A stretch of DNA of 64,000 nucleotides from an uncultured euryarchaeote (GTDB lineage Archaea > Thermoplasmatota > Poseidoniia > Poseidoniales > Poseidoniaceae), in the NCBI GenBank assembly GCA_937915175.1, contig CALDNA010000050.1, positions 11,581 through 75,580 on the forward strand, given 5' to 3'. The notes under the pieces are model-generated. The model was given only the letters and a program-made list of their open reading frames with translations. It ran no database searches and had not been told where the DNA came from. Shown here piece by piece: positions 9,301 to 57,584 of this stretch (within the stretch, counting starts at the first letter, position 1; each line of letters begins with the position of its first letter). The position numbers and the translations under genes are program-made.

Positions 9301-10007
9301 AGGACGAGATCTGTGAAACCACAGTCCGTGTCCACAACAGCGAGTCTTGGGATATTTCCAGTGTCGTGACTACAGGCGATGAACTTGTGTTCACCTATGA
9401 AGAAACCAACGACATGTGGTTTGCTGAAGACGACAACTGTGATGCAAGCGGCATGGTTACATTCAACCTCGTTAAGGTTGAAGACAGTGCAATGCCTGAA
9501 GAAGAAGAAGAAGATTGGACTTGGGAAGATGAAGAAATGAACCTTCTCCCAATCTGTGACTGGTTCTACACGGTCACCTTGGCCAATGGTACAATGATGT
9601 CCGAGCAAGGCGTCGAGGAAGCATCGGGTGAAGATCGAATCATCACCCTTGTTGACGACGCTGCTTACGAAATCGGAATCTACTGCTGGGACCCTGAGGG
9701 CGGCAACATGACCGTTACGCTCTCGAGCCCACTTGGGAACTCCACCAATACCAGCATGGGATACGCTTGGAGCTGGATGAGCTTCGCCCTCCCTGCCGGT
9801 ACCGGTGGAAACTTCTCAATTGACATCTCATGGACCGATGGCTACCACGCTGAATCCGGAACCCTCACAGTTGTCGCTACTGGCGATGGCAGCACGGGCG
9901 ACATTAGCGACGTAGAAGTCGACAGCGAAGGAATCCCTGGATTCACCGCTGTATTCGGTATCGTTGCTCTTCTTGGAGCAGCAATGCTGTCTGGCCGCCG
10001 TGACTGA
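6333..10007 (+). CDS. giant acidic extracellular multi-EF-hand calcium-binding protein with PGF-CTERM archaeal sorting signal
   Basis: Signal peptide KPGFAFLMALALVTTTFAGVSFA. At least 11 canonical 12-residue EF-hand loops: DANQDGAITASE, DTDMSGNVSIDE, DTNEDGELDLDE, DADQDGNITLSE, DVDGNEMLDFGE, DTNGDDQLSLAE, DDNGDELLDHNE, DTDGDGNLSLSE, DWDMSGSLDANE, DTDGDGSVSLAE, DADSNGLLNASE. The C-terminus GIPGFTAVFGIVALLGAAMLSGRRD matches the PGF-CTERM pattern. About 30 N-x-S/T sequons by eye. Confidence 0.85.
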   Translation: MSRWVMNDSASLKMKPGFAFLMALALVTTTFAGVSFANPTTGTGPSNTMASMDYDELELIVDFDANGTDYTSLTSEIHVWDDDNFSAWFGPEDMMEESDNTSWNTHWADISLVLFFNGSAGVSPMADEGTWYYVDAYVNDSYGYTVGQAYTQICMDNGSVCEDDQNGPDIEDIFNQIDANQDGAITASEIIDFENMERESNNESNLTAEEEADIADDVAEFDTGYDDGMGNTEDANDSMLEINEFTEMFLERNTLITGADAYLEDGVVRIEIHDDLDEVDYVWILIHDGEGNELINETYAGDENGDFQDWTSPDCCNEDGMYYITLYFYDEDNMSIDSDSFTLGGYDNDQMMFDMFDTDMSGNVSIDEYLDAMDNASDINGEDPMDNATRTMISNMFMDEDTNEDGELDLDEFLSFWNTLNNMGGDDDDTRTDAEMMRMMLDADQDGNITLSEMLVMVEENQSDASKMTTFYTNLFNNEDVDGNEMLDFGEFSVFHERLDELMGDDCYDVMAGDAILSDGTFEDQEGNETELMAGDTAPSDGEFCEWGEMDTDVILLMLDTNGDDQLSLAEILVDMTSGDETADELMMLGFVFEYYDDNGDELLDHNEFGLFWTHMQSGEEYIPTNAQILSMYDTDGDGNLSLSEVLAAVSNGNESADELMMFGWIFESHDWDMSGSLDANEFFWFMDSMQSGEEYTPTPVQMMDLFDTDGDGSVSLAETIAFLNAGAENQDETLSEIEEEYLGVLFGFMDADSNGLLNASEFPEFYYALDSEEDQGDMGDDDGQGQGQGNETDMVCYDMVNHVILQNIDNSSECEAAGFMWTENINSGDGEGQDNDSNSEEQGINFDSMDVWFEQWNDQTMQLVLVELGVVDSPEEIERLSMMADGMYGNNDSVLDESEVNMLMSLYAMSLNVDDIAKGLTLDGQNGTAVDFWVEIDGLLEGDDVVFVRIGTVIEFPVTNTYDNSTSHAFVVTNTDVEDDGGAGEDFTEDEICETTVRVHNSESWDISSVVTTGDELVFTYEETNDMWFAEDDNCDASGMVTFNLVKVEDSAMPEEEEEDWTWEDEEMNLLPICDWFYTVTLANGTMMSEQGVEEASGEDRIITLVDDAAYEIGIYCWDPEGGNMTVTLSSPLGNSTNTSMGYAWSWMSFALPAGTGGNFSIDISWTDGYHAESGTLTVVATGDGSTGDISDVEVDSEGIPGFTAVFGIVALLGAAMLSGRRD
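8065..8510 (+). repeat. in-frame tandem duplication (222-nt / 74-aa unit, two full copies plus a degenerate third) inside the EF-hand gene
   Basis: GCAGATGAACTCATGATG recurs at 8079 and 8301. The protein unit is ADELMMxGxxFExxDxxxxGxLDxNEFxxFxxxMQSGEEYxPTxxQxxxxxDTDGDGxxSLxE, one EF-hand pair per unit. Confidence 0.8.
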
Positions 10008-34722: not shown

Positions 34723-34865
34723 GAAGCCCTGTGACCCCCCCTCATTGAAAACGCTTGTCGAAAAATGCCCATCATGACCCCCGTAGGGGGTCAGGTGAAC
34801 AACCGCCAACATCGACCAAAAAACGCAGGGGAGAAGTTGACAAAAGAGGAACTTCTCGTGAGGTC

Positions 34866-35516
34866 ATGAACGGCAAGCGTTGGCTCATTTGTGCCGATGG
34901 CGTGTGGCCTTCAGAGCAAGTTTGGCGGCCGCTCAAAGAACGAGCTGACGTAATCCTAGCATGCGACGGTGCCCTTCATCAATGCATTGAGCGGGGCTTT
35001 GAACCGAATGTTGTGATTGGTGACATGGACAGTGTTGGTGAAGAAGCCATGAAAAAAACGCAGAAAACCATCGAATGGCTGAACGTAGAACACCAAGATT
35101 CCAGTGATCTAGCCAAAGCAATTGATCATGCCAGCCAACACGCCCCGCTGAAAATTGACATCATCGGCGTGGAAGGCGGGGCAATGGGCCATCAACTCGC
35201 CCCTTATTTCGCCCTGATGGAAGCGCCTCCAAACACCACAATTTATTCGGCTGAAGCTCGCATTGTGTGCGTGAAAGATTCAATGATAGAACTCCACTCT
35301 ATAGAAAAAGGTAGCCGCGTTTCCTTGTTTGCTTTTGGTGCTGCCAATGGGGTCACATTGGCGGGGTGCGAATGGGTGCTTGAAAACGAAACGCTCGACA
35401 CGGGCACAAGGGGTCTCAACAACAAATCTCTCGCCTCGAAAATCAGACTCGTCGTTGAACAAGGAGCCGTTCTTTTGTGCGTTGAACCGGATCAAAGCGG
35501 ACCTTTCGGAAGATAA
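34866..35516 (+). CDS. thiamine pyrophosphokinase
   Basis: ILACDGAL...VVIGDMDSV (GDxDS), HQDSSDLAKAI (DQDxTDxxKA-like), IIGVEGGAMGHQLA (GGRxDH-like). Start trimmed to ATG 34866. The 3' end overlaps the convergent gene by 25 nt. Confidence 0.8.
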   Translation: MNGKRWLICADGVWPSEQVWRPLKERADVILACDGALHQCIERGFEPNVVIGDMDSVGEEAMKKTQKTIEWLNVEHQDSSDLAKAIDHASQHAPLKIDIIGVEGGAMGHQLAPYFALMEAPPNTTIYSAEARIVCVKDSMIELHSIEKGSRVSLFAFGAANGVTLAGCEWVLENETLDTGTRGLNNKSLASKIRLVVEQGAVLLCVEPDQSGPFGR

Positions 35517-36355
35517 TCACGAAGCATCTCTGAAAACGATCCTTCGCCATCCCATTTTGAAGCATGTTCGTCAACCCGTGCATGCTCCATGGTCGATTCA
35601 AAGCCGCCCCAATCTTCGATCAATCCAAGGTTGTACGCTGCCTTTGGGGTGTATCCTGGCAAAAAGTTCCGCCAGGTGAACGGAACCCGACCGGGCGTGA
35701 TGAGGTTCACCATGCCAACGATGGAGGTGTTGCATGTGGTTAGGAAGGAGTGATACCATTCCCCTTTTTCAGCAAGGCGATTGACTTTTTGGGTCAACGC
35801 CAACAGCAACGCTTTTTCCTTGCCCGGGGGCGTTATTGCACGGAACATGTAATCCTTATTTCCCCGCCCGTTGGTGCGCAGTCCAAGGACATCCCGTTCA
35901 AAACCGACTAACAAATACAGTTCGAAGTGCCGCCAGAAACCTGGCCAAGGGTGGTACCGTTGCCCCTTTCTGCGCCGTGCCTCAAAAGAGAATGACAAGC
36001 ATGTGCCATCATTGAATTCGAAGGTGAGGAAGGTGTGAGCCATACCGTGCAGGCTGTGAAAGTGATCGACGACGAACCAGACGTCCTTGATCTCATCAGC
36101 GTTCACTTCTACCGTATCAGCCCAGTCTTCATCTCGATCCCGAGTGGTTCGCCAGAAAAAATCACGGATGTTGGAGTAACGAATCACTGACCCTTCTATT
36201 TCTGCAGTGGTTGTTTTTTCACAATCTGAATTCCAATTGGCATCCAGCTGGGGCACGCGAGGACGCACCCGCACCATCCATATCAGAACGCAGAGACCGA
36301 TGACAGTAATTTTGAAAGCCACCACATAGGCGAAGATCATCAACCATTGCGCCAT
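35492..36355 (-). CDS. N-terminally anchored DUF4105-like protein (tentative)
   Basis: TM helix MAQWLMIFAYVVAFKITVIGLCVLIWMV, then HGMAHTFLTFEF...SFSFEARR...FELYLLVGFERD...WYHSFLTTCNTSIV. This resembles my recollection of the DUF4105 core with its ..N-C-T motif. Confidence 0.5.
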   Translation of the reverse strand: MAQWLMIFAYVVAFKITVIGLCVLIWMVRVRPRVPQLDANWNSDCEKTTTAEIEGSVIRYSNIRDFFWRTTRDRDEDWADTVEVNADEIKDVWFVVDHFHSLHGMAHTFLTFEFNDGTCLSFSFEARRRKGQRYHPWPGFWRHFELYLLVGFERDVLGLRTNGRGNKDYMFRAITPPGKEKALLLALTQKVNRLAEKGEWYHSFLTTCNTSIVGMVNLITPGRVPFTWRNFLPGYTPKAAYNLGLIEDWGGFESTMEHARVDEHASKWDGEGSFSEMLRDYLPKGPL

Positions 36356-36361
36356 CTTACC

Positions 36362-37681
36362 TCACCACTTGTGCCAAATACGCAAATCCTGATCCCACCA
36401 ATCCATTGCCCCATCCGGTTGTTGGCGCCAAAGGGTACCACTGTCGTCGGTTGTGGTCGGCATGCCTTGCGGGTCGGGTGAACCATCGGGCAGAATTGTT
36501 GGTGTTGGGCCGAGGGAACGTAGAGCCGGTTGTTCACCCTCTTCCTTGACCCGTACAAGCATGAAAAAGACGATGAAGGCGACGATCAAACCAAGCGCCC
36601 CGATTGAATACCAGCCAACTGATTCCGTATCTGTTTCTTCACCGAATGAACGGCTTGGAAGGGCTGCAGATTCATCGGCTGTGAGGTTGGCACCGGGTGA
36701 CCGAACGAGGTTAAGGCCGTGGATTGTACGGATTTGTTCATTGTTGATCACTTCGAGGCTGATCAGATGGACCCCTGCAGGCAACACTGAGCAGTCATAC
36801 GTCTCGCTGGAAGTGCCAGGTTGTTGCTTGCCTTGAACAGCCCAAATCTTGTCAAACGTGGTGAAGTCGACACCCGCCATATTCGGGACCAAGGTGATCA
36901 GGCACGGTGTGTCAGTTGAGTTGCCTCCGCCGCGAACATCGAGCGAAAAGGCGGGTGCAGGTCGATTGTGAATGGTGATGTTAAGCCAAGATTCAGTCGT
37001 CTGACCAAGGTCGTTACGATAGGCTTCCTTCAGCATGTATTCGCCGGCTGGCCAGCGAGAGCAATTGAGGGCTGTTTGGTTGTCGAGCACGGTGAAGGGA
37101 GCGCCGGTAAACGTTCGAACACCTTCCGCCGCATACCGAGGGCCTGTTTCATCAGCAAACACACGGTCAATCATGCATGCATCGCCTGTTTCAATCCAAG
37201 CAGGTGCATCCAGATCAAGGGTGATTTGAGGGGTTTTCAACGCTGGGCGAAGCACATAAGTCGGCAATTGAACCGTGGTGATTGTTTCACCGTCTTGGTT
37301 GACGATCTCAAGGCGTAATGCATGCTCACCCTGTGCCCATGCATCATACACCAGGCTGGCGTTTGATTGGCCAGAAAAGGACATGCTGCGGCTGTCGTGA
37401 ACTTCACGATCTTTGTGAACACCATACAAACGAAGTTCGATGTTGGTGAAGTCGTTGGTTGTGTTCATGATGACCACAACTCGAATGGCGTCAGGTTCCC
37501 CGTCTTGATTCAAATCCAAAGTATCGTTTCGAAGTGCAATGAGGTTCAATCCTTCCGCTTCAAGCGCGTCATCAACGGCAGAGGGTTCGGCCGAGGCCGT
37601 GAGGCTCAACCCGAGTGGTGCCACCATGCTGCAGGTGAGAATCAACAACATCAGCACGCTTCGCCTCTGAAGTTCAAACAT
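36362..37681 (-). CDS. type-I membrane protein with ~3 Ig-like/beta-sandwich ectodomains and a Trp-rich cytoplasmic tail
   Basis: Signal peptide SVLMLLILTCSMVAPLGLSLTASA, TM helix WYSIGALGLIVAFIVFFMLV, tail ...GTLWRQQPDGAMDWWDQDLRIWHKW. The start overlaps the upstream gene's stop by 8 nt (ATGTTTGA). Confidence 0.7.
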   Translation of the reverse strand: MFELQRRSVLMLLILTCSMVAPLGLSLTASAEPSAVDDALEAEGLNLIALRNDTLDLNQDGEPDAIRVVVIMNTTNDFTNIELRLYGVHKDREVHDSRSMSFSGQSNASLVYDAWAQGEHALRLEIVNQDGETITTVQLPTYVLRPALKTPQITLDLDAPAWIETGDACMIDRVFADETGPRYAAEGVRTFTGAPFTVLDNQTALNCSRWPAGEYMLKEAYRNDLGQTTESWLNITIHNRPAPAFSLDVRGGGNSTDTPCLITLVPNMAGVDFTTFDKIWAVQGKQQPGTSSETYDCSVLPAGVHLISLEVINNEQIRTIHGLNLVRSPGANLTADESAALPSRSFGEETDTESVGWYSIGALGLIVAFIVFFMLVRVKEEGEQPALRSLGPTPTILPDGSPDPQGMPTTTDDSGTLWRQQPDGAMDWWDQDLRIWHKW

Positions 37682-40220
37682 CTTCGTTCACCTCCATGGC
37701 TCCTGCTGGCATCGGCAAAGGAGGAAGGTCCTGCAACGCAATCATTCCGGGAAGCGGAAGCTCTTGGCCCATTTCTTCAAGGGTGCGGGATTGTTTTTCT
37801 TCAAACAAAGCGTCTTCGAGATCTGCATCATCCTTGCCTGAGCGAACAAAGAGCGCTGCTCCTGCCCCTGCGATGAATCCTAAGCCGATAACGAGGTATG
37901 TGAGCCAAGAGGCTTCTGGGCTTTCACCAAGAATGGCAACCGCTGCAGCAAACTCGCCATATTCATCCGACCAGCCATCGTTGTTCGAGTCAACGCACCC
38001 TTGAATGTCACGTTTCGAACTACCAGCCTGCTCTGGACAATCATCCCTGAACGCACCAAGAGGAACGTCACCGAAACCATCACCATCAAGGTCGCGCCAT
38101 TGCAGTGCCTCGGTAGGGAATGCGTCTGCTGTGCCTGCGGGATGGGCCGCCCAAGAAGCGGTTGGGTCTGACCAACCATCGCCATCGGTGTCCCTGCACC
38201 CAAGTCGGTCGAGCATGGAAGTGCCTCGGACTTCAGGGCAAGCATCGCCTTGGTTACCGTCTTCATTGTCGCCGTAGCCGTCGCCATCTGAGTCGCGCCA
38301 TTGAGTCGGTTCGTGGATGAAAGCATCGCCTAGATCCGACCAGCCATCGCCGTCTGTATCAGCACAACCCCAACGGTCTCCACCTGAAGAAGGCCCAACT
38401 GAAGTGCCGGCCTGATCGGGGCACACGTCGGCGGTTGTACCGCGTGGATTGTCGCCGCGGCCATCGCCATCGATGTCATGCCATTGAGTTGGATCCATGG
38501 GCCAAGCATCGCCGCGCCCTCCAGGGCTTGCAAGCCATGCGCTTGTTGGGTCGGACCAGCCGTCTTGATCGCTGTCGGGGCAGCCCCATCGATCAAACGT
38601 GGAGGAACCTTCTGTGGTTTTGCATCCATCGCCGCGATAAGCATCTCGGAAGGTTTGGCCGTCGAAGTACTCCGTGTTGTCCCCATAGCCGTCGTCATCG
38701 GTGTCGTACCACTGGCTCGAGTCTTCGGGGAAGGCGTCAGAAAAGCCTGCTGGATGAGCAATCCAATCGTCTGTTGGGTTTGAAAATCCATCCTTATCGG
38801 TGTCTCGGCAACCCAAGCGGTCGGCGTAGGAAATCCAACTGGATTCAACTTCTTCAGGGGAAGAGAATACGCATACATCGCCCTCGTATCCTTCGAGATT
38901 ATCGCCATAACCGTCGCCGTCGGTGTCCCTGTACTGAGAAGGGACGAATGGGAAATCGTCGACTTGAGAGGCGCCGTAGGTTCGATTGTCACCCCAGCCG
39001 TCTTCATCTGTGTCCAACCACTGTGTAGGGTTATCTGGGAAATCATCGACGAGGTTTGCGCCCTCGGTTTGGTTGTCGCCCCAACCATCAAAGTCGCGGT
39101 CGCGCCATTGTGAATCTTCGAGAGGGAAGGCGTCTGAACCGTTGCTGATGGTCCAATTGACATCACCATCGGAGTATGAATCGCCGTCAGTATCGGTGCA
39201 ACCGTAGCGATCACCGCTTGATGATCCTGTGATGAACGGGCAAGCATCCGGCATGGTTGCGTTGTAGACATGGATGCCAATTCCCCATGCTTCACGGGTT
39301 ACATTCCAGTCGTCGTCTGCCCAATTATCGCCATAACCATCAGCGTCGGTGTCGTTCCACTGGGTGCTGTCAAGCGGGAAAGCATCGCCCATGCCAGTTG
39401 GATGAGCGTACCAGGCCGTTACGCCATCAAGACCACCTGGGTCTTCATCAGAAAATCCATCGCCGTCCGAGTCAAGGCATCCGAATCTGTCCATGGTCGA
39501 GTAACCCCGTCGATACGGGCAATGATCGCCCTGATAGCCGTCAAGATTGTCACCGTAATTGTCGTTATCGCTGTCGAGCCATTGAGTTGGTTCGAGATAG
39601 AATGCGTCCGCACCGTTTTGTGCCAACCAACTGGTGTCTGGGTCGGACCAACCGTCGCCATCCGTATCGATGCAACCCTTTCGGTCGTTCGAGGAAGAGC
39701 CAACGGTGTCGTCGCAGTCGTCATCGATGTCGACAAATCCGTCTTCATCGCTGTCTCGATTGGTTTTGTCAATGGACGGTGTGATGGTGTAATCATAGCC
39801 ATCGTTGCACCACGAATCGTCAGCCTGGATTTTGACATAGACATAACTCTGAGTGGAAACGGTGGTCGACAGCGTCTTCGATGCGGCGTTGTCATCCACG
39901 TAGGCATCGACGATGGTTCCGCCCTGAGGGTTGAGCAAAGAAATACGCCCCATCCAGCCGTCGCCCGGGCACCACCAAGCCGGCCCGTTCATGGTGCCGG
40001 AAAATGAGATTTGCACGATGTCGCCTTTCTTCGCCTCGACCTTCCAATAGTCGGCCTGATCGTTGCCAGCATCGCAATCCGGATCGCAGACATAACCGCT
40101 GGACGTCACTCCATCCGTGAGGGGTGTTGCGCTTTGAATATCGTTGTCCGCTTGGACCGGTGGCAAGGTGCACAGCAACAGCGCGGCGAGCCAGAGGGCA
40201 AGCACACGCTTCGCGAGCAT
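37674..40220 (-). CDS. type-I surface protein: PPC-like N-domain plus ~18 thrombospondin-type-3-like Ca-binding repeats, TM helix, acidic tail
   Basis: Signal peptide MLAKRVLALWLAALLLCTLPPVQA. N-domain DQADYWKVEAKKGDIVQISF is PPC-like (tentative). Alternating units follow: GC.DTDGDGWSDP...DAFP.E.TQW.D.DGDGYGDN. TM helix LTYLVIGLGFIAGAGAALFV. Confidence 0.85.
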   Translation of the reverse strand: MLAKRVLALWLAALLLCTLPPVQADNDIQSATPLTDGVTSSGYVCDPDCDAGNDQADYWKVEAKKGDIVQISFSGTMNGPAWWCPGDGWMGRISLLNPQGGTIVDAYVDDNAASKTLSTTVSTQSYVYVKIQADDSWCNDGYDYTITPSIDKTNRDSDEDGFVDIDDDCDDTVGSSSNDRKGCIDTDGDGWSDPDTSWLAQNGADAFYLEPTQWLDSDNDNYGDNLDGYQGDHCPYRRGYSTMDRFGCLDSDGDGFSDEDPGGLDGVTAWYAHPTGMGDAFPLDSTQWNDTDADGYGDNWADDDWNVTREAWGIGIHVYNATMPDACPFITGSSSGDRYGCTDTDGDSYSDGDVNWTISNGSDAFPLEDSQWRDRDFDGWGDNQTEGANLVDDFPDNPTQWLDTDEDGWGDNRTYGASQVDDFPFVPSQYRDTDGDGYGDNLEGYEGDVCVFSSPEEVESSWISYADRLGCRDTDKDGFSNPTDDWIAHPAGFSDAFPEDSSQWYDTDDDGYGDNTEYFDGQTFRDAYRGDGCKTTEGSSTFDRWGCPDSDQDGWSDPTSAWLASPGGRGDAWPMDPTQWHDIDGDGRGDNPRGTTADVCPDQAGTSVGPSSGGDRWGCADTDGDGWSDLGDAFIHEPTQWRDSDGDGYGDNEDGNQGDACPEVRGTSMLDRLGCRDTDGDGWSDPTASWAAHPAGTADAFPTEALQWRDLDGDGFGDVPLGAFRDDCPEQAGSSKRDIQGCVDSNNDGWSDEYGEFAAAVAILGESPEASWLTYLVIGLGFIAGAGAALFVRSGKDDADLEDALFEEKQSRTLEEMGQELPLPGMIALQDLPPLPMPAGAMEVNEDV

Positions 40221-40298
40221 GGTTGCCCAAGTGGTGATGTGCTAATGAACACTACCCGTCGGAAAGAACACCCTACGGGTGACTTGAGAATCCTCTTC

Positions 40299-42086
40299 TC
40301 AAGACTGATATCGCGCTGCGAGAATCAACTCGTCTGCGGAAAAGAACGGCATGCTCAACCCGCTTTCGGAGCTGCTGTTGACCACGCTGTGAGCTGTGGC
40401 GATGTCGCCACGAACGAACTTGATGTACCGTTGTTCTTCATTTTCTTCGAACGGGTGAAGCCCGACGTTTTCTTGATAGGCAATACCAATCCAAGAACCA
40501 TCTGGCGATGTGACGGTCTCAAAGAAATCATGCAAAGCGTGCGTATCGCCGCTGCTTTCTTCGTAATCAGTAACGGTGTGAAGGGGGGTCGGATCAACGA
40601 TTTTGAAATCCCAAACATCCCCTTCCATTGGGTGGTGAAGGGCGCCTGCATACAGGTACCAATCCTTGCCAGCAACATAGCCATCTTCAGAGTTATTTTG
40701 ATCATAATCTAAACCATAAAACGCTAGGCTGACCACCTGATCTTCAGAGATTGAAACAAAGGGATACATCTGAATTCCACGATCGAACGCCGTTGCATTC
40801 CAACTTGACCAAGCGCTGCCGTTGTCGTATGAAACTGCAACCCTCAACTCCCAAGCGCCTGTGTTTCCATTTGGACAATCCGCCCAAGCCACGACGACCA
40901 TGCCACCTTCGTTGTTGTTGACAACGGGGTAACCCTCTGGACAATTGCCTTCTCGTGGTCCAACTTCAACGGGGCTTTGCCAAGTGCCTTCGCCAGGCCC
41001 CGGGCCTGTTCCTCGACCGTAGTCCGCACTGACGCGCACTTGCACGTGCCCGCTTGCTGAGTCTGCATCTTCTTGAGCCACGAACACATACGGGCCGTCG
41101 TTTTGAGCGGAGATGGTTGACCAACCTCCGGGCATAGCGTAGCATTGTGAATAGGGGGCTCTTCCGGTTTCGGAATGATAGTACCAGTATCGCCCTGAAT
41201 CACCAGTGCATTCAGGAGGACTTGCTCCCGAATTGCCGAGGTAGTGAATGATGCCATCGCCTTGTGCTGCAACCCACGGCCTGTCATCCGCAGCCATGGT
41301 TTGCATGCGTTCGCAAACGGTTGGTGAAATGTAGGTGTTCCCACCGTCTTCAAACATGTGCCACCAGTTGTCTTCCAATGTGGTATCAAGGAAGTAAACG
41401 ACGTCGTTGCCATCGACGGCAATATCGCCTTCGTCTCCGAGGCATTCGGAACCGGAACCAGCAACGGATCCAAGAATGGAATTGGTCATTGGGCCAGGGG
41501 TTGGTTCGAAGTTATCGCCATGGCCCCATGTTTCGCCACCATCGTTAGAAATCCAGAACCATGAGGCCCAATAATCCCAAGATGTCATTTCTCCATCTTC
41601 GCATGCGTACCACTGATCTAGATCTCCGCCGATGACGGGAGCGAACGGGTTGCCTTCTCCTCCCCAACGCAAATCCTTGTGAGCGGTCACGAAGAGGTTG
41701 CCTTGCTTGTCGATTGAAAGGCTTGGCTCATAGCCAATGCCATAGCCTTCATAGCCTGCATCCTGCCCGTTATCAGGGTCGATGCATTCGTCGTGACGAG
41801 GCATGTATTCTGGTTCGCCCCAAGAGAAATAGACCTGATCGCCGACTAAATTTTCTTGTGCTTCGGCTGGATTCAGACCGTTGGCGATTGATGTGCCCCA
41901 AAGGGCTGAAAGAAGCAAGGCGATGAGGGCAACTGCAATGGTGGCGCCAATCGCCATGTTGAGTTCCTTAGCCGCACTCGAACCCGCTGACGGAGCCTCT
42001 GTTTGAGGGGATTGAACAAGAATCGCATCCTCTGCCATGAAGGTCGGTACCTTCGCTTCTCTTTGGAGGTTCCCACTCAGCGTCAA
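40299..42086 (-). CDS. N-terminally anchored extracellular BNR/Asp-box (sialidase-like) beta-propeller protein
   Basis: TM helix MAIGATIAVALIALLLSALWG. Asp-box motifs SNDGGETWG, SYDNGSAWS and SADYGRG. Rich in W/Y/G. The start may be M1, M17 or M44. Confidence 0.8.
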   Translation of the reverse strand: MTLSGNLQREAKVPTFMAEDAILVQSPQTEAPSAGSSAAKELNMAIGATIAVALIALLLSALWGTSIANGLNPAEAQENLVGDQVYFSWGEPEYMPRHDECIDPDNGQDAGYEGYGIGYEPSLSIDKQGNLFVTAHKDLRWGGEGNPFAPVIGGDLDQWYACEDGEMTSWDYWASWFWISNDGGETWGHGDNFEPTPGPMTNSILGSVAGSGSECLGDEGDIAVDGNDVVYFLDTTLEDNWWHMFEDGGNTYISPTVCERMQTMAADDRPWVAAQGDGIIHYLGNSGASPPECTGDSGRYWYYHSETGRAPYSQCYAMPGGWSTISAQNDGPYVFVAQEDADSASGHVQVRVSADYGRGTGPGPGEGTWQSPVEVGPREGNCPEGYPVVNNNEGGMVVVAWADCPNGNTGAWELRVAVSYDNGSAWSSWNATAFDRGIQMYPFVSISEDQVVSLAFYGLDYDQNNSEDGYVAGKDWYLYAGALHHPMEGDVWDFKIVDPTPLHTVTDYEESSGDTHALHDFFETVTSPDGSWIGIAYQENVGLHPFEENEEQRYIKFVRGDIATAHSVVNSSSESGLSMPFFSADELILAARYQS

Positions 42087-42094
42087 TGAAGGGC

Positions 42095-43360
42095 TTATTG
42101 TGCAACCAAAGAAGCGTAAATTGCCTCATATGCTTCTGCGTTGTGTTCGTAGGTGTACATCGAGAGGACACGCTCCCTGCCGCGTTCAGCCTGTTCAACA
42201 CGCCCGTCAGGATCGTTAAGCGACCGGCAAACGGCCTTCGCCAAGTCGCTTGAGTCGCCGGTTGTAAACAGTTCACCAACGGTTTTGTCAATCATTTCTG
42301 TGAGCGGGGCTTGGTTCACCGTAACAACGGGTGTACCGCTGGCTAAGGCTTCCAAAGGAATGAGCCCTTGACCCTCATAATAGGAAGGGTAGACCACCAA
42401 ATCCGCTGAACGGAAATGCTGTGCTAATTCTTCAAAGGGCATGCCTGGTTGGATAAACACCGCATGACCAACGCCCAATTGCTTTGCTTGCTTCAACAAG
42501 GTCTTCGCCATGTGGCCGCGTCCAACGATGCACAGCCTTGTGCCTGGATGCTGTTCAAGAATTTCCGGCATTGCCCGCAACAAAGTTCGGTGACCTTTTC
42601 GAGCCACAAGCCTGCCGACGGCCAACAGGAGAGGCGTGGATTTGGATGGTCGGCCACACAGGGCATCTTCATCAGCAGCGTCGTACTTTTTCCTCAACGC
42701 TTCATGAGCCAATTGTTCATCTTCATCGTCGGTGTTGCTTGGTCGGAACACAAGGTGATCAACACCGTACAAAATTGTCTCACATCGCCAATCTTCGGGA
42801 GGAGCGTACCAACGCTTGAACTCCTCTTTTGTTGATTCACTGATCGCTACACTGACCGAAGAGCCGTCGATCCCGGCCTGCTCGTAACGAGCGTACCAGC
42901 CACCTGTCGTCAGAATGGCCAAATCGTTCGGATTCTTCCATGTCGCAGATTCGCGATGCTTGGCTGCCAGCTTCATGCCTTCTCGCTCGCCGATCCAACT
43001 GCCATTGAGGGCAGAGACAACTGGAGCGATGTTGGCTTCAATCCATTCGAATTCCTTTCGCTTCCAACTCACGAGGGGCAACAAGGTGTGAACCACGTCA
43101 ATAGGGGCGCTGAGATGCAGTTGTTTCAAGGCGCGCAAAGCATGTTTCCCGTATGAACGAGTGAAGGCCATTGGCGCTTTCAACCAGGGAACTTCAATCA
43201 CAGTCACACCTTGTTGGGCAGGTGCACGGCCCTTGTGGGCACGGGTGATGATGGTGATGCTGTGGCCGCGCGCTGCCAAATGACCAGCCAAATGGAACAC
43301 AACGGAACCGATTCCCCCCCACCGTGGAGGGTATTCACCGGACACCATTGCGATGTGCAT
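42095..43360 (-). CDS. glycosyltransferase family 4 (GT-B, group 1)
   Basis: MHIAMVSGEYPPRWGGIGSVVFHLAGHLAARGHSITIITR, and C-terminal VVYPSYYEGQGLIPLEALASGTPVV (EX7E region). Start trimmed from 43585 to the ATG preceding the conserved N-terminus. Confidence 0.85.
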   Translation of the reverse strand: MHIAMVSGEYPPRWGGIGSVVFHLAGHLAARGHSITIITRAHKGRAPAQQGVTVIEVPWLKAPMAFTRSYGKHALRALKQLHLSAPIDVVHTLLPLVSWKRKEFEWIEANIAPVVSALNGSWIGEREGMKLAAKHRESATWKNPNDLAILTTGGWYARYEQAGIDGSSVSVAISESTKEEFKRWYAPPEDWRCETILYGVDHLVFRPSNTDDEDEQLAHEALRKKYDAADEDALCGRPSKSTPLLLAVGRLVARKGHRTLLRAMPEILEQHPGTRLCIVGRGHMAKTLLKQAKQLGVGHAVFIQPGMPFEELAQHFRSADLVVYPSYYEGQGLIPLEALASGTPVVTVNQAPLTEMIDKTVGELFTTGDSSDLAKAVCRSLNDPDGRVEQAERGRERVLSMYTYEHNAEAYEAIYASLVAQ

Positions 43361-43466
43361 GGAGGTGCGAATGTGTGCTTCGGTTTCAATGTCACCGAAT
43401 GAAGACCCCTCAGATTCAAATTCTCGCTCCAATGCTTTCAAGGGGGTTGCGTTTGTGGCAAGGTAC

Positions 43467-44240
43467 ATGGGCGAAAAACTCCCTGTCACCGTTACGGTGA
43501 TACTTCCAACTCGAAACGAAGAGGAAGCCTTGGCACCAACGATTGATGCAATCCCGCGTGGATGGTGTAAAAACCTCGAAATCATGATTGTGGACGGAAA
43601 CTCAAGCGACCGAACTCGAGAGATTGCTTTGGAGAAGAAAATCCGAGTTCACCTTGAGGACCGAAAAGGATACGGCCGAGCCTACCGAACTGGATTTGAT
43701 GTGGCTAAGAACGACATCATTGTCACCATGGACGCGGACTGCACCTACCCTGCAGAACTCGTTCCAACGCTGGTCAAGCGCCTGCTTGATGACGATCTTG
43801 ATTTCATCACCTGTGACCGTCTATCGCTTGCTGAAGAAGGCTCAATGCCAGGTATTCACGGGTTTGGAAACTGGGCGCTGTCCTTCACCGCACGCATTCT
43901 GTTTGGCTATGGCATCAAAGATTCTCAGTCCGGCATGTGGGTGTTTAGAAAATCCATCTTTGACAACGAAGCAATGAGGCCGACCAACGATGGTATGCCG
44001 CTTTCAGAAGAAATGAAGATCCTTGCTCGTCGCGTGCTTGGGAAGAACAAGGCCGTCGAAATCTCTGTGCCGTACAGGCCACGGGTTGGCGAGGCTGAAA
44101 TTCACACATGGGGCGACGGTTGGAAGAACTTCAAATTCCTCTTCGCTCGCCGAGTAGGCCTTCACCGAACTCGAACCCCGTGGGGCAGCAGGGATTCAAA
44201 CCCCGATTCAACAAACGGCGACTTACCCGAGCAAGCTTGA
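43467..44240 (+). CDS. glycosyltransferase family 2 (dolichyl-phosphate sugar synthase-like, AglD/AglJ-like)
   Basis: VTVILPTRNEEEALAPTIDAI, IVDGNSSDRT, VTMDADCTYP (DxD). Divergent from the GT4 gene. Start trimmed from 43353. Confidence 0.85.
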   Translation: MGEKLPVTVTVILPTRNEEEALAPTIDAIPRGWCKNLEIMIVDGNSSDRTREIALEKKIRVHLEDRKGYGRAYRTGFDVAKNDIIVTMDADCTYPAELVPTLVKRLLDDDLDFITCDRLSLAEEGSMPGIHGFGNWALSFTARILFGYGIKDSQSGMWVFRKSIFDNEAMRPTNDGMPLSEEMKILARRVLGKNKAVEISVPYRPRVGEAEIHTWGDGWKNFKFLFARRVGLHRTRTPWGSRDSNPDSTNGDLPEQA

Positions 44241-44251
44241 GTTGAGCGAGC

Positions 44252-44887
44252 ATGACGTTTTGGCATCAACGCTGGGATGACAATCAAACCGGTTGGCACC
44301 GCGATGTTGTCAATGATTTATTGATCAAGCATTGGCCAAGCCTCAACCTCGAACAGGGCACCAACGTGCTTGTGCCGTTGTGTGGCAAAAGCATCGACAT
44401 GCATTGGTTGGTGCAACAAGGGCACAGCGTTACGGGCATTGAACTCGTAGAAACGGCGGTTGAAGCTTTCTTCAACGAAGCCAAAAAGACACCAACCATA
44501 GAATCACTTGGAGAAATTAAGCGATACAAGGAGGGCAAAACAACACTGCTTCAAGGCGATGTTTTGGCGATACAACCTTCGATGGTTTCCAGCGATGCCT
44601 GGTACGATCGAGCGGCGCTCGTCGCTCTCCCTTCAGCCATGAGGCCTGCCTATGTCGATCAAATACGGGCACTTTGTCAACCAGGTTCAACAGGGCTGAT
44701 GATTACTTTTTCTTACCCGCAAAACGAAATGCAAGGACCGCCATTTTCACTTCCAGACGAAGAAGTTCTCAGATTGTTTGAACCAGAGTTTGAGGTGGAA
44801 TTGTTAGAACGCATTGCGCTTGAAGATGAGAAGCAACGGGGTTTAACGAGCGTTCATTCAGCAGTCTACAAATTGACTCGAACGTAA
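44252..44887 (+). CDS. tpm: thiopurine S-methyltransferase family (Tpm; includes Se/Te and halide methyltransferases)
   Basis: FWHQRWDDNQTGWHRDVVNDLLIKHWPSL...VLVPLCGKSIDMHWLVQQGHSVTGIEL...WYDRAALVALP tracks bacterial Tpm along the whole length. Confidence 0.9.
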   Translation: MTFWHQRWDDNQTGWHRDVVNDLLIKHWPSLNLEQGTNVLVPLCGKSIDMHWLVQQGHSVTGIELVETAVEAFFNEAKKTPTIESLGEIKRYKEGKTTLLQGDVLAIQPSMVSSDAWYDRAALVALPSAMRPAYVDQIRALCQPGSTGLMITFSYPQNEMQGPPFSLPDEEVLRLFEPEFEVELLERIALEDEKQRGLTSVHSAVYKLTRT

Positions 44888-54359: not shown

Positions 54360-57300
54360 TCAATCAAAGAGCACATCGCCAAGATCTTCATCGGCTGCAT
54401 CCGTCACATCAAACGAAACCTCGTCAAACGGGGATTTTTTCAGGCCTTCCGAGCTCACGGCCTCTTCAATCGAAACGACGCTCGATAGGGCCGAAGTGGC
54501 AACGGCGGAAGGGGGCGCTTGAGGAAGAGGTGGAACAGAAGGGGCGTTGGGGGTCACTTGCAATTGTTCAAGGTCCCCATGCAGTGCTTCGCTATGGAAT
54601 CCGGAAAGATCTGCGAACTCGGCGTTGCCCAATTTAGGCTTGGAGGCAGATGCGGATCTAGCCCTGCGAATCTTTCTTATTCGCTTCTTCTTTCTGCGAC
54701 GACGAACGTAAAGCAAGAGCAAAATGAGGATAATAGCGGGGTACTTCCAAAATTGCACCAAGAAGTACAACCAGGTGAGGTGGAGTTGGAACGTGATGGT
54801 GTCTTCAACATCACCAGCAGGCAACGTGTATGTGATTTGTTGGCGCCCATCAACCATCACGTCTTCGATGTTGCCTTCAGCGGATTCGAGGTTTTTCAGA
54901 GTAATCCCTCTTGGAAGGGTCACAGTGAATGGCCCGTTCACTGCCACTTCGAATTCCTTTTGCAGTTCATGTGGCATGGTGTTGAAGTTTAATGGAACAG
55001 AAATGGTACCGTCTGAGTCCTCATCAGGAAGGGTTACGCCATCCCATTGGACAATGCTGTTCGTCAGCATACCGGTAACCCCTTGCATAAGCATGGCCAT
55101 TGGTTCGATGAACATCGAACGGATTGCATCCGCTACGAGACTCAATTGAATGCCGGAGGTGTCTCCGTCGCGAAGTTTACCTAAATCGCCTCCAATGCTG
55201 AGTTCAAATTGGACCTTTGGGATTTTGAGTGTCAGACTCAGTGGCTCTTCATCGCTGACAATAAGGTCAGGGGCACCAACGCCCTTGAGCCGCGTTTGAA
55301 TCTCAAAAGCACTGATGTCGATTTCTTTAAAATTGATGTGTTTGTTATCCATCAACAACTGAGAATATTCGTGGAGGAAAAGCGTGAACAACTCTCCTGT
55401 TCGTTTTACAAAGGTTGCAAGTCCTTCGGCTGTAAATTCAAACGTAAGGCTTTCGTTGCAAATGCTAAGTCCAGGCCGGCAAAGGAGTTCACCGATTTCA
55501 AAAGTACGGTTCATTGGATTGTCCACCCTGCTCGCAATTTCAAGTCCGAGTCGAATTAAATCAGAAGGCAACGCCTCGAGCATCACGCTGTGTTCGTCGA
55601 CTTGTGGAATGCGATCGGTCGGAATGCCAATTCGATACACAGATACATCTGCATCCAAGCCAAATTCAAACTCGACGGATTGAGTCCATTCGTTCAGATT
55701 GAATGACATTGCGTCCATTTCTACAGCGGTTGTGACGCAAGTTTTGTTGGTGCTGGGGCAAAGAACATTTTGATTGGCGTCTCGGATGACATGCCGCCAA
55801 TCGTATGGGTTTGTACCAGCAAAGGAAATACGGTTGGTATCATTGCCGGCAAGGGTGTCTTTGAGCACCAAGCGGTCACCGCCAGCAGCGGTCCGGACCC
55901 ATGTTGGCAAGATGATTTCAAGCGTCAGTTCAGAAGGCGGGAGATTTTCAGGAACAATCGCTGAGAGGTAACTGCTGTCAAGTACCGTTTCAAGGGTTAA
56001 TCCAGAGTTCAGCACGCGTTCGAAGTCCGCTTCCTCCAGTTCGTCGATGATCACTGCGAGTTCCTCGTTTTCGTTATTTTCTGCCAAAATGTCGATCAAG
56101 CGCATCGAAAAGGGTTGGCTGGTAGTTTGGAGATAGACTGGGTGTTCAACACCCATTGCCTCTGCGCCGAGTGTACAATAATGCAGATCAACCCCCGCAG
56201 GCGCTACCTCAGTGCAGCCGGTTGAATGGGAATAGTTGAGCCCTCCCGAAGGCATTGAGCCAACAGCAGACCTCGAAGAAATCCATGACATGTTGTTCAT
56301 CTCAATGGTGTCGATTCCCGCTACAGTGGAGGATACGCCTTCCGCAATTACATCGATCGGGAATTGAGAAGTGAAGTTTGACAAGTCGACAAGTCCGTTA
56401 TGATACGCTAGGCGAATGCCGTCTGCGGTCACCAGCGGAACTGTGGCTTGGTCTGCCACCTCCATCAGAGAGATACCCCAGTCTTGCATTGTTTTGTCAT
56501 CCAGATAGTACATACCCGCAACAAAATCCAACGTTGCTGCTGATTCATCGCGCAGGTCTAATGTGATCTGCAGATCAAGAGCCTTGCTTCCTTCAGGCAC
56601 TTCCACAGTTGTTGTGTCAGTGCGATTTCGGTGGCTGATTAACAATTCAACACTTTGGCTCAAGTTTGAGTCAAAGTTTGTTGCTGCCCGATGGTCGATG
56701 ACCCATGAGCCTGAGTTGTAGTTGGGCGTGCCCGCACGCAAGAGGAGTTGGCCTTGGGCGTCAACAGCGTCAATGGTTGCGTAACTTGGAGGGTTGAATA
56801 TGTACGATGCAAGATGGCCTCGTTGAGCGACGAAGTCGAAGGAGGAGGTGATTTCTGTCCCCATAACGAGAAGCCCCTGATAGGCCCGTTCGAGTTTTAG
56901 ATCTGGGTTGGAACCGAGGTTGAACGACGATTGGTCAACTTGGATAATGGCCGATGTCGACAAGCAAATTGGGGGGTAGAAGGCATTGTTTTCTGAAGCG
57001 CCCTCTTCGGCGGAATCGGTTGCTGGATCACTGGAACAAGGTGTCGTGACGGCACCGTTTGTGTATTGGTTGGCAAAATTGGTCGAGACGACAACCTCGC
57101 CCATGCTGGTAAGAGAAGATTCGATGGCTCCACTGATTTCACTTTTGAGTTTATCTTCAACTGTAGCAGAACCCGCACCATCAGTTTCTTGATCAAAGAA
57201 ATTCCGAATCAAGTCGGCTGGGGCTCCGTCGTCTGCTTCCAAACCGTCGTTCGCTAAGTAGGCGTCAAGGTATACATTTGAAAGTCCAAGCAATTCGCGA

Positions 57301-57584
57301 TCGAATTCATAAATGGCCCAAGTCAATTCCAATTCTATCTGCTCGGTGCTCACCATGCTGAACTCATAGGTTCCTTCAATCCAGTCTTGAAAGTCAGGGG
57401 TTCCATCGTCTGCTTCATCGTATGAATCACAAATTCCATCAACCCCAGCACCCGGGTCTTTATCGCAGGATGTCATGCCTGCAGCGGCCGCATAAGGAAC
57501 AAAAATCGAGAGCATCATCACAAAGACGAGCGCGTTGGCAAGAGCTTGCTGGCGGAAGTTTGTCCCGCGTGGCGCATGGCTCAT
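54360..57584 (-). CDS. orphan 1074-aa type-I membrane protein (large non-repetitive ectodomain, TM helix, polybasic stop-transfer, acidic tail)
   Basis: N-terminal helix ALANALVFVMMLSIFVPYAAAAG, C-terminal TM helix YPAIILILLLLYV followed by RRRRKKKRIRKIRRARS, tail ending DEVSFDVTDAADEDLGDVLFD. No family recognised. Confidence 0.8.
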   Translation of the reverse strand: MSHAPRGTNFRQQALANALVFVMMLSIFVPYAAAAGMTSCDKDPGAGVDGICDSYDEADDGTPDFQDWIEGTYEFSMVSTEQIELELTWAIYEFDRELLGLSNVYLDAYLANDGLEADDGAPADLIRNFFDQETDGAGSATVEDKLKSEISGAIESSLTSMGEVVVSTNFANQYTNGAVTTPCSSDPATDSAEEGASENNAFYPPICLSTSAIIQVDQSSFNLGSNPDLKLERAYQGLLVMGTEITSSFDFVAQRGHLASYIFNPPSYATIDAVDAQGQLLLRAGTPNYNSGSWVIDHRAATNFDSNLSQSVELLISHRNRTDTTTVEVPEGSKALDLQITLDLRDESAATLDFVAGMYYLDDKTMQDWGISLMEVADQATVPLVTADGIRLAYHNGLVDLSNFTSQFPIDVIAEGVSSTVAGIDTIEMNNMSWISSRSAVGSMPSGGLNYSHSTGCTEVAPAGVDLHYCTLGAEAMGVEHPVYLQTTSQPFSMRLIDILAENNENEELAVIIDELEEADFERVLNSGLTLETVLDSSYLSAIVPENLPPSELTLEIILPTWVRTAAGGDRLVLKDTLAGNDTNRISFAGTNPYDWRHVIRDANQNVLCPSTNKTCVTTAVEMDAMSFNLNEWTQSVEFEFGLDADVSVYRIGIPTDRIPQVDEHSVMLEALPSDLIRLGLEIASRVDNPMNRTFEIGELLCRPGLSICNESLTFEFTAEGLATFVKRTGELFTLFLHEYSQLLMDNKHINFKEIDISAFEIQTRLKGVGAPDLIVSDEEPLSLTLKIPKVQFELSIGGDLGKLRDGDTSGIQLSLVADAIRSMFIEPMAMLMQGVTGMLTNSIVQWDGVTLPDEDSDGTISVPLNFNTMPHELQKEFEVAVNGPFTVTLPRGITLKNLESAEGNIEDVMVDGRQQITYTLPAGDVEDTITFQLHLTWLYFLVQFWKYPAIILILLLLYVRRRRKKKRIRKIRRARSASASKPKLGNAEFADLSGFHSEALHGDLEQLQVTPNAPSVPPLPQAPPSAVATSALSSVVSIEEAVSSEGLKKSPFDEVSFDVTDAADEDLGDVLFD

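Follow-up and report, generated by a model that had tools for sequence, protein, structure and literature searches.

Putative transcription units and predicted surface proteins of an envelope-gene block in Poseidoniaceae archaea

Gene layout and expression signals of the locus

The locus described here lies in a 64,000-nucleotide (nt) stretch of DNA, referred to below as the window, from a Candidatus Poseidoniaceae (Marine Group II a, MGIIa) archaeon. The part of it around the BNR gene is 98% identical to the contig CASICQ010000004 of a metagenome-assembled genome. Five consecutive genes on the minus strand encode, in the direction of transcription, a GT4 glycosyltransferase (42095-43360), a BNR/Asp-box β-propeller protein (40299-42038), a protein with TSP3-like calcium loops (37674-40220), an Ig-like membrane protein (36362-37681) and a DUF4105/Lnb_N protein of the permuted NlpC/P60 type, here called Lnb-like (35492-36355). 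A GT2 glycosyltransferase gene (43467-44240, plus strand) diverges from GT4. A first-pass annotation had read the five genes as one operon for a dedicated, glycan-linked surface complex. The open reading frames (ORFs) are found where it had placed them, at 35492-36355, 36362-37681, 37674-40220, 40299-42086 and 42095-43585 on the minus strand and, for GT2, at 43353-44240 on the plus strand with the ATG at 43467 in use.

Most of the spacings reported earlier are exact, namely the 6-nt gap between the Ig-like and Lnb-like genes (36356-36361), the 8-nt overlap of the TSP3-like and Ig-like genes (ATGTTTGA, 37674-37681, minus strand), the 78-nt gap between BNR and the TSP3-like gene (40221-40298) and the 106-nt spacer between the ATG codons of GT4 (43360) and GT2 (43467). 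The gap of 8 nt between GT4 and BNR has to be corrected. It requires the TTG at 42086 that opens the BNR reading frame, but the ATG at 42038, 16 codons further in, is the start in all 12 aligned homologues (62-87% identical) and in the public gene calls. Since the homologues and a promoter-like box at -29 agree on this ATG, the real gap is 56 nt. Neither the five-gene run nor its gaps are out of the ordinary, as the window is 92% coding and contains other same-strand runs of 7, 4 and 3 genes. The same-strand gaps of the window fall into two classes, of at most 13 nt and of 40-86 nt; those of 56 and 78 nt belong to the second, which is the class that holds promoters.

An expression grammar was built from 830 ORFs of the window and of 79 other Poseidoniales loci (L008-L086). 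Among 591 genes preceded by 40 nt or more of spacer, the starts of TT[C/G]A motifs peak at -31 to -28 from the ATG, with a summed frequency of 0.28 against about 0.01 per background position, and enrichment of Shine-Dalgarno (SD) motifs is not seen. A TATA-like box at this distance without an SD implies leaderless mRNAs. Among 177 genes with a gap below 25 nt, GGAGGTGA-type SD motifs peak at -13 to -9 and the box signal is slight. Literature searches on leaderless or promoter signals of Marine Group II returned no paper, and one on S-layers of the group gave three papers that, to judge by title and abstract, seem unrelated.

Both kinds of signal are found at the locus. The divergent spacer (43361-43466) carries the GT2 box CTTTCAAGGG (about 43435-43444, plus strand) at -30 and the GT4 box CATTGAAACC (about 43382-43391, minus strand) at -29; these positions match the lineage-wide peak and back both starts, and the grammar conflicts with the public calls of 457 aa for GT4 and 236 aa for GT2. 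The BNR gene is preceded by a promoter-like box, CTCCAAAGAG (42059-42068, minus strand), of which the variant TCCA begins at -29 from the ATG, and the TSP3-like gene by TGTTCATTAG (40242-40251, minus strand), with TTCA at -29. No SD precedes any of these four genes in the window. The Ig-like gene has the SD GGAGGTGA at -14 (37688-37695, minus strand), inside the 3' coding end of the TSP3-like gene. The Lnb-like gene has an SD-like element, GGTGAGGT, at -11 (36359-36366, minus strand), which covers the last Trp codon and the TGA of the Ig-like gene. No box is found before these two genes.

For the comparison with relatives, 80 species-representative loci anchored on the BNR gene were collected with flanks of 10 kb. 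The BNR footprint aacctccaaag stands at a constant distance in close relatives, and related boxes lie at -25 to -35 upstream of BNR in all its other genomic contexts. The footprint of the TSP3-like gene, gtgttcataggcacacc, or cttgaaaacc in other clades, also keeps its distance while the flanks vary. At the TSP3/Ig junction, GGAGGTGA followed by the ATGNNTGA overlap is found in 31 of 32 species, whatever the reading frame upstream, and 28 of 31 species have an SD-like element where the Ig-like and Lnb-like genes meet. In the species in which BNR and the TSP3-like gene are linked, the gap between these two is 37-87 nt (about 560 nt where a gene has been inserted), and the TSP3-to-Ig and Ig-to-Lnb gaps are about zero in all of them.

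With a box at -29 and no SD at GT4, BNR and the TSP3-like gene, and SDs only before the Ig-like and Lnb-like genes, three predicted units (GT4, BNR and TSP3-Ig-Lnb) provide the most economical reading, and the single five-gene operon of the first-pass annotation is not supported. Separate transcription starts, which that annotation had itself named as evidence against one operon, are in part indicated, in the computation, by the promoter boxes at three genes. A tricistronic TSP3-Ig-Lnb unit agrees with the near-zero gaps and overlap, with the SDs and with the lack of distal boxes. The proposed co-translation in fixed stoichiometry can thus be retained for these three genes, by virtue of the SD and ATGNNTGA overlap, and not for all five.

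An earlier idea, that a TTCATT before GT4, BNR and the TSP3-like gene was the box, has been superseded by the position-specific TT[C/G]A analysis; only the TSP3 copy is real, those of BNR and GT4 being unconserved and lying at -52 and -43. Short Logan contigs, considered as possible transcripts, were uninformative, with ends that miss the gene starts (81 and 109 nt upstream). A hairpin just 3' of the BNR stop codon, CACCC-GTA-GGGTG (40269-40281, minus strand), is present in close relatives as CACCC-NNN-GGGTG, with the stem kept and the loop differing (GTA, TAC or TTC), and could be a 3'-end or processing signal.

Products of the TSP3-Ig-Lnb genes

The TSP3-like gene encodes a type-I membrane protein of 848 aa that is predicted to bind calcium. 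It consists of a signal peptide, a PPC-like N-terminal domain of about 130 aa, about 8 double repeats, a transmembrane (TM) segment at 772-795 and an acidic tail, the signal peptide and C-terminal TM being assigned from hydropathy. The double repeats are bracketed by cysteines and hold 15 strict and 3 degenerate DxDxDG loops, about 18 in total. The sole database support for the TSP3 label is a phmmer match to the PDB entry 5wtl (E-value 3.5e-4) in which the pattern GC.DTDGDG...CP...G is aligned; neither the whole protein nor an isolated double repeat matches Pfam TSP_3 or TSP3_bac at E ≤ 10. The N-terminal domain has a sub-threshold match to PPC (PF04151; E-value 6.4e-4, 21.0 bits against a cutoff of 25.9, model positions 2-69 of 70). 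Sub-threshold PPC matches at E ≤ 0.01 recur in 3 of 10 homologues of the domain, and PPC is matched neither by the full-length protein nor in a search of the PDB with the profile of the N-terminal domain. The calcium-loop motifs and the type-I anchoring assigned in the first-pass annotation are borne out, and its TSP3 and PPC labels go back to weak matches.

Tandem DxDxDGxxD loops between cysteine pairs (GC.DTDGDG...D.CP...G) are shared with bacterial TSP3 repeats such as those of the OmpA-family protein 5wtl. Unlike in 5wtl, the archaeal repeat is a double unit of 56-130 aa in which a Trp-flanked second loop (TQW.D.DGDGYGDN) alternates with the Cys-bracketed one, and unlike the OmpA-anchored or secreted TSP3 proteins it belongs to a type-I membrane protein with a PPC-like head. 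'Thrombospondin' genes are widespread in Poseidoniales and have been linked to adhesion (Rinke et al., PMC6461757).

The Ig-like protein (439 aa) is also a type-I membrane protein, with a signal peptide and a C-terminal TM segment (about 357-375) by hydropathy. Its AlphaFold2 (AF2) model, with a predicted local distance difference test (pLDDT) value of 73.6, contains three all-β domains (45-144, 152-238 and 245-328), the TM helix and a β-rich, Trp-rich tail. Foldseek matches this model to the triple BIg domains of SiiE, to Sap, to triple FN3 domains and to CD22 (E-values 1e-7 to 1e-6), and no match to Pfam is found at the sequence level. Model and matches agree with the earlier description of a three-domain Ig-like protein with a Trp-rich tail. 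Three consecutive β-sandwich domains are in common with the tandem Ig-like (BIg/FN3) adhesins and S-layer proteins typified by SiiE and Sap. Unlike these, the archaeal protein has only three domains, is anchored by a TM helix and carries a conserved Trp-rich cytoplasmic module (residues 388-439). The motif of this tail, LPT.vD..G..WR...DG..DWWD....W..W (residues 380-439, window 36362-36541, compared over L008-L063), is the most conserved part of the protein and has no Pfam match. That it is retained even with ectodomain identity down at 35-40% suggests a partner inside the cell, for which the Lnb-like enzyme may be one candidate.

Neither surface protein has a conserved lipobox: homologues of the TSP3-like protein differ at the signal-peptide cysteine, and the signal-peptide consensus of the Ig-like protein lacks the lipobox cysteine. 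The exported proteins of the cluster carry 4-8 N-glycosylation sequons. The whole BNR, TSP3-like and Ig-like proteins have no Pfam match at E ≤ 0.01, and weak sub-threshold matches appear only at E ≤ 10.

The Lnb-like protein (287 aa, one N-terminal TM) occurs in identical form on 18 marine metagenome contigs, Tara Oceans included. It matches Pfam PF13387 with an E-value of 1e-20 (74.1 bits, cutoff 22.2) over model positions 3-174 of 175, in accordance with the N-anchored DUF4105-like protein described earlier; a profile search of the PDB gave nothing significant. Twelve aligned sequences, down to 43% identity, all keep the residues H98, H100, H107, E125 and C208, and the spacing of H107, E125 and C208 (+18, +101) equals that of the TseH and Lnb triads. 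The protein shares the permuted His...Cys order and this triad spacing with Lnb and with the LRAT/TseH/Tox-Act1 clade. It is likely to be a catalytically active thiol enzyme located at the membrane's inner face.

Topology and composition of the domain point the same way. An Arg/Lys cluster C-terminal of the TM is found in 99% of 119 homologues, with a mean of 3.26 such residues after the TM and 0.19 before it. Lysine plus arginine (K+R) make up 12.1% of the domain and 11-16% across homologues, values within the 7-14% range of, or close to, the cytoplasmic enzymes of the genome; the exported proteins of the genome have 1.6-6.9% and isoelectric points of about 4.1-4.5, and BNR ectodomains 2.8-4.7%. 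Because of the cluster after the TM (positive-inside rule) and the cytoplasm-like composition, the domain probably faces the cytoplasm, with the N-terminus out and the C-terminus in. The first-pass annotation had counted four membrane-anchored extracellular proteins at this locus; three are exported, and the Lnb-like domain is probably cytoplasmic. The domains of LRAT/PLAAT enzymes likewise face the cytoplasm.

The permuted NlpC/P60 clade comprises lipid-directed acyltransferases and phospholipases (bioRxiv 10.1101/2024.05.31.596883; PMC12994826). The features of a Bacteroides-type Lnb are not found here. Bacteroides Lnb has five TM segments, and the archaeal enzyme only one, at the N-terminus, with no TM bundle at its C-terminal end; the predicted orientation of its domain is inward, and the proteins encoded alongside are no lipobox substrates, having no conserved lipobox. 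Neither the TSP3-Ig-Lnb combination nor an inward-facing archaeal DUF4105 enzyme is described in any paper that we found.

The propeller, the glycosyltransferases and their neighbourhood

The BNR protein (579 aa) has an N-terminal signal anchor, assigned from hydropathy, and an extracellular propeller with 3.6% K+R. A motif search identifies three Asp-box-like motifs, and the Pfam matches lie below threshold (BNR_2 E-value 0.019, 14.8 bits against a cutoff of 31.4; BNR E-value 0.56). All 8 cysteines are invariant in 12 aligned homologues, and the alignment shows very many other invariant residues, including His, Asp and Glu, a YMPRH motif and positions with Arg, Tyr and Glu. In a Foldseek search of the PDB, the top matches of the AF2 model (pLDDT 66, predicted template-modelling score 0.71) are the sialidases 1wcq, NanA/B/C and 2w38, with E-values of 1.5e-8 to 1e-6, TM-scores of 0.3-0.4 and 10-13% identity; a profile search of the PDB gave nothing significant. 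The assignment of a sialidase-type propeller fold, predicted from this model, holds, and sialidase activity is a candidate function suggested by the fold. The fold and the three motifs are shared with the GH33 sialidases and the BNR superfamily. Unlike in GH33 sialidases, the RIP/Arg-triad/Tyr-Glu set was not identified, no residue-level structural alignment being available. Of the type-II anchored Asp-box propeller assigned earlier, anchor, fold and motifs are retained, and the Pfam families fall short of their thresholds.

An exhaustive profile search among 1.84 billion proteins places the BNR family in 176 clusters at 50% identity; it is small and appears to be mainly archaeal. Distant relatives (430-490 aa) carry BNR/BNR_2 matches of 25-39 bits, and one of them has been named exo-alpha-sialidase by PGAP. 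No paper was found in literature searches on Poseidoniales sialidase or BNR. Among the recovered Poseidoniales genomes the protein is present in both families, independent of its neighbours.

GT4 (421 aa) is a GT-B glycosyltransferase with no TM and a cytoplasmic composition (K+R 11.2%). It exceeds the Pfam thresholds of Glycos_transf_1 (PF00534; E-value 1e-35, 122.9 bits, cutoff 26.4) and of a Glyco_transf_4-type family (PF13439; E-value 3e-14, 53.7 bits, cutoff 28.5), as expected for the cytosolic GT-B enzyme named in the first-pass annotation, and has no NCBIfam equivalog at cutoff. A Pfam 'GT4-conflict' match, which might have suggested a defence system, is mere cross-family similarity. 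GT2 (257 aa), similar to Dol-P-hexose synthases and AglJ, is assigned to the generic Glycos_transf_2 family (PF00535; E-value 2e-26, 93 bits) and is 79-100% identical across syntenic loci. Its best NCBIfam matches are AglJ (TIGR04182, 101.7 bits against a cutoff of 325) and the haloarchaeal Dol-P-hexose transferase (NF041391, 100.4 bits against 375). These matches, and the adjoining GT4, recall archaeal N-glycosylation (agl) clusters. Unlike such clusters, the window contains no aglB, flippase or other agl gene, the equivalog scores are far too low, and the pair behaves as an independent invertible unit. The check for aglB proposed earlier is thus negative for the window, and the sole basis of the 'glycan-linked' complex is adjacency to two generic glycosyltransferases. 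A gene for a thiopurine/Se-Te S-methyltransferase (TPMT; 44252-44887, plus strand), above its NCBIfam equivalog cutoff, lies 11 nt downstream of GT2. Of the relatives, only the three closest (L007-L009) share the gene at this place, so that it looks like a recent insertion.

Downstream gene order was counted in the 73 loci with at least 3 kb past BNR. The TSP3-like gene directly follows BNR in 33 of them, and the Ig-like and Lnb-like genes are also kept in 30 of the 32 TSP3-linked loci with enough flank, L027 and L053 being without an adjacent Lnb-like gene. GT4 lies directly upstream of BNR in 23 of 27 TSP3-linked loci; of the four loci that differ, three have an inverted GT pair. This inversion, of GT2 and GT4 as a unit, is seen in L020, L021 and L035 and apparently in L054, where the upstream region is incomplete, and the pair is absent in some clades, so that an obligate linkage to it is not supported. 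A gene for an AhpC/TSA peroxiredoxin stands between BNR and the TSP3-like gene in the same four loci and in L062 (e.g. L021:6679-7161); L062 begins within BNR, which puts its upstream region outside view. In 40 of the 73 species, mostly Thalassarchaeaceae but also Poseidonia-like genomes, BNR is apart from TSP3-Ig-Lnb and occupies at least six unrelated contexts, among them MMPL, AIM24, peptidase S15 and biotin carrier genes. In L022 (9860-14325) BNR overlaps a downstream gene for an MMPL/RND-type transporter (922 aa) by 4 nt, making this transporter another possible functional partner. The gene order is kept across many Poseidoniaceae; with BNR decoupled in 40 species, an obligate link to BNR is not supported. 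A β-helix giant, GT2, the convergent thiamine diphosphokinase (TPK) and an FG-GAP giant are equally syntenic; since unrelated neighbours are kept as faithfully, synteny alone is no sign of shared function.

The genes form part of a 'surface-protein island' of about 23 kb (26709-49747), the surface members of which are all on the minus strand with K+R of at most 6.9%. They comprise an EF-hand protein (547 aa), the FG-GAP giant (2125 aa), the TSP3-like, Ig-like and BNR proteins and the β-helix giant (1611 aa), interrupted only by the cytoplasmic genes TPK, Lnb-like, GT4, GT2 and TPMT. The four large surface proteins have no motif in common at their C-terminal tails. A further surface protein of this kind, with no Pfam match, is encoded at 54360-57584. 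At 6333-10007 (plus strand) lies a gene for a protein of 1224 aa with 1.6% K+R, 23.6% Asp plus Glu, many EF-hand motifs and a PGF-CTERM motif, which is a candidate archaeosortase substrate or S-layer-type glycoprotein. TPK (ATG 34866, plus strand) and the FG-GAP giant (ATG 34812, minus strand) diverge across 53 nt (34813-34865) with apparently one common near-palindromic box (AGTTGACAAAAG / CTTTTGTCAACT), about -29 from the kinase ATG and about -33 to -24 from that of FG-GAP. This box may be a single bidirectional promoter element.

Interpretation of the locus

The reading that we favour, with a probability of about 0.55 for the whole including its mechanism, is that of an inherited Poseidoniaceae envelope-gene block made up of three tandem transcription units. 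Unit 1 would be GT4, sharing a bidirectional spacer with the Dol-P-hexose-synthase-like GT2, the two forming a generic cytoplasmic glycosylation pair. Unit 2 would be a monocistronic leaderless gene for a membrane-anchored extracellular propeller of sialidase fold. Unit 3 would be the only true operon, in which a leaderless TSP3-like gene is followed by the SD-driven, start/stop-coupled Ig-like and Lnb-like genes. The TSP3-like protein is pictured as a stiff stalk with about 18 Ca2+ loops and a PPC-like head, which together with the Ig-like protein, in fixed ratio, would build up a Ca2+-dependent type-I assembly at the cell surface, serving in adhesion or as a scaffold of the envelope. Such an assembly fits the earlier adhesion suggestion for the 'thrombospondin' genes of Poseidoniales (PMC6461757). 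The Lnb-like protein would act at the cytoplasmic face as a membrane-tethered Cys-His enzyme of LRAT/Lnb type, with a membrane lipid or the conserved cytoplasmic tails of its TSP3-like and Ig-like partners as targets. The firm result, as predicted from the sequence comparisons, is the conserved tricistronic operon for a pair of type-I surface proteins and a Cys-His enzyme tethered to the membrane. Its gene structures, folds, expression signals, coupling, synteny and topology indicators come directly from the computation, and from them we infer the transcript boundaries, Ca2+ binding, complex formation and enzymatic activities.

Several points weigh against this reading. The box of BNR is the variant TCCA and not TT[C/G]A, and transcription may read through from GT4 or BNR into the genes downstream; oligo-T terminators are not enriched in the lineage, being undetectable even at convergent 3' ends, and so give no guide to where the units end. 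In a neighbour-joining tree the BNR-TSP3-Ig adjacency occurs in several deep BNR clades with the unlinked clades nested, which suggests an old adjacency lost several times and fits some selective linkage of units 2 and 3. Another Ca-loop repeat protein lies directly upstream of BNR in the Poseidonia-like loci L030-L033 (e.g. L031:7664-9868). It is Cys-free, of about 700 aa, with DSDNDGVGDN.DAFPNDP repeats and a type-I TM, and its place beside BNR may reflect chance or a recurring association. The complex of the TSP3-like and Ig-like proteins is a deduction, and the inward orientation of the Lnb-like domain is argued from the positive-inside rule and from composition, set against a Bacteroides Lnb domain that is periplasmic and N-acylates lipoproteins (bioRxiv 10.1101/2024.05.31.596883; PMC12994826).

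Separate transcripts could still serve a joint function, in which BNR as an ecto-glycosidase or lectin and the TSP3-Ig pair capture and process algal glycans and the GTs glycosylate the proteins. This is a minority reading that we regard as unlikely, though it comes nearest to the favoured one. It agrees with the sialidase-type fold and the many invariant residues (His, Asp and Glu included) of BNR, with the sequons on the exported proteins, with the other Ca-loop protein adjoining BNR in Poseidonia-like genomes, and with an adjacency of BNR, TSP3-like and Ig-like genes that spans several deep clades and outlasts GT inversion, peroxiredoxin insertion and loss of the Lnb-like gene. These points are offset by Pfam scores of BNR below threshold, by its low TM-scores, by sialidase catalytic residues that were not identified and by the lack of any solved structure matched by sequence. 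They are offset also by the unrelated neighbours of BNR in 40 of 73 species and by a housekeeping gene, TPK, that is no less syntenic; the genome encodes many Ca-loop surface proteins, and their adjacency to BNR could be chance. A degree less probable is one five-gene operon read from the GT4 promoter, making a dedicated glycan-linked surface complex in fixed stoichiometry. All five genes do share a strand with gaps of at most 78 nt and no recognisable terminator between them, and the order GT4-BNR-TSP3-Ig-Lnb is found in 23 of the 27 TSP3-linked species with enough upstream flank. The internal genes of the lineage carry an SD, however, and GT4, BNR and the TSP3-like gene have the box at -29 instead; the 8-nt gap was an artefact of the TTG start, and where the GT pair is inverted (L020, L021, L035 and apparently L054) GT4 is unable to drive BNR. 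The peroxiredoxin gene that parts BNR from TSP3 in five species, the 40 species in which BNR stands apart and the equal synteny of TPK and of the FG-GAP and β-helix giants also disagree with a single operon.

Two further proposals concern the Lnb-like enzyme. The tricistronic unit might encode a Ca2+-dependent receptor pair together with a cytoplasm-facing thiol acyltransferase that acylates the tails or remodels ester-linked acyl lipids, a specific version to which we give small odds. Smaller still are those of an outward-facing N-acyltransferase that lipidates or matures the co-encoded surface proteins, as an archaeal counterpart of lipoprotein N-acylation. The Lnb_N match over nearly the whole model (3-174 of 175, E-value 1e-20), the conserved Cys/His/Glu triad, the translational coupling to both surface proteins and the periplasmic N-acylating domain of Bacteroides Lnb would suit such an enzyme. 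The TSP3-like and Ig-like proteins nevertheless lack a conserved lipobox cysteine, one TM stands against five in Lnb, the positive-inside rule (99% of 119 homologues) and the cytoplasm-like composition indicate the inward orientation, and L027 and L053 keep TSP3-Ig without an adjacent Lnb-like gene.

Taken at the level of the three-unit block, all the proteins add new members to fold or domain classes already known, and the locus is a lineage-specific surface module of predicted proteins. The first-pass annotation was right that most of them belong to the cell surface and that no named pathway matches; the five-gene operon and its complex are not supported as stated. We know of no description of the Poseidoniales envelope. 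Poseidoniales, which are uncultured, are the most abundant planktonic archaea of surface oceans (PMC6461757). The promoter/SD grammar serves the calling of start codons and operons in their genomes, and the BNR protein provides an ecto-propeller conserved across the order. Ester-linked acyl lipids have been proposed for Marine Group II from PlsC and fatty-acid synthesis genes (PMC6962369) and, if made, could be a substrate for the Lnb-like enzyme. Should the acyltransferase proposal be true, it would provide the first functional role for an enzyme of the DUF4105/Lnb family in Archaea and indirect evidence for the use of fatty-acyl lipids by Marine Group II archaea. An Lnb-like enzyme whose targets are acyl lipids or protein tails on the inner side of the membrane would bear on the question of mixed bacterial/archaeal membranes.

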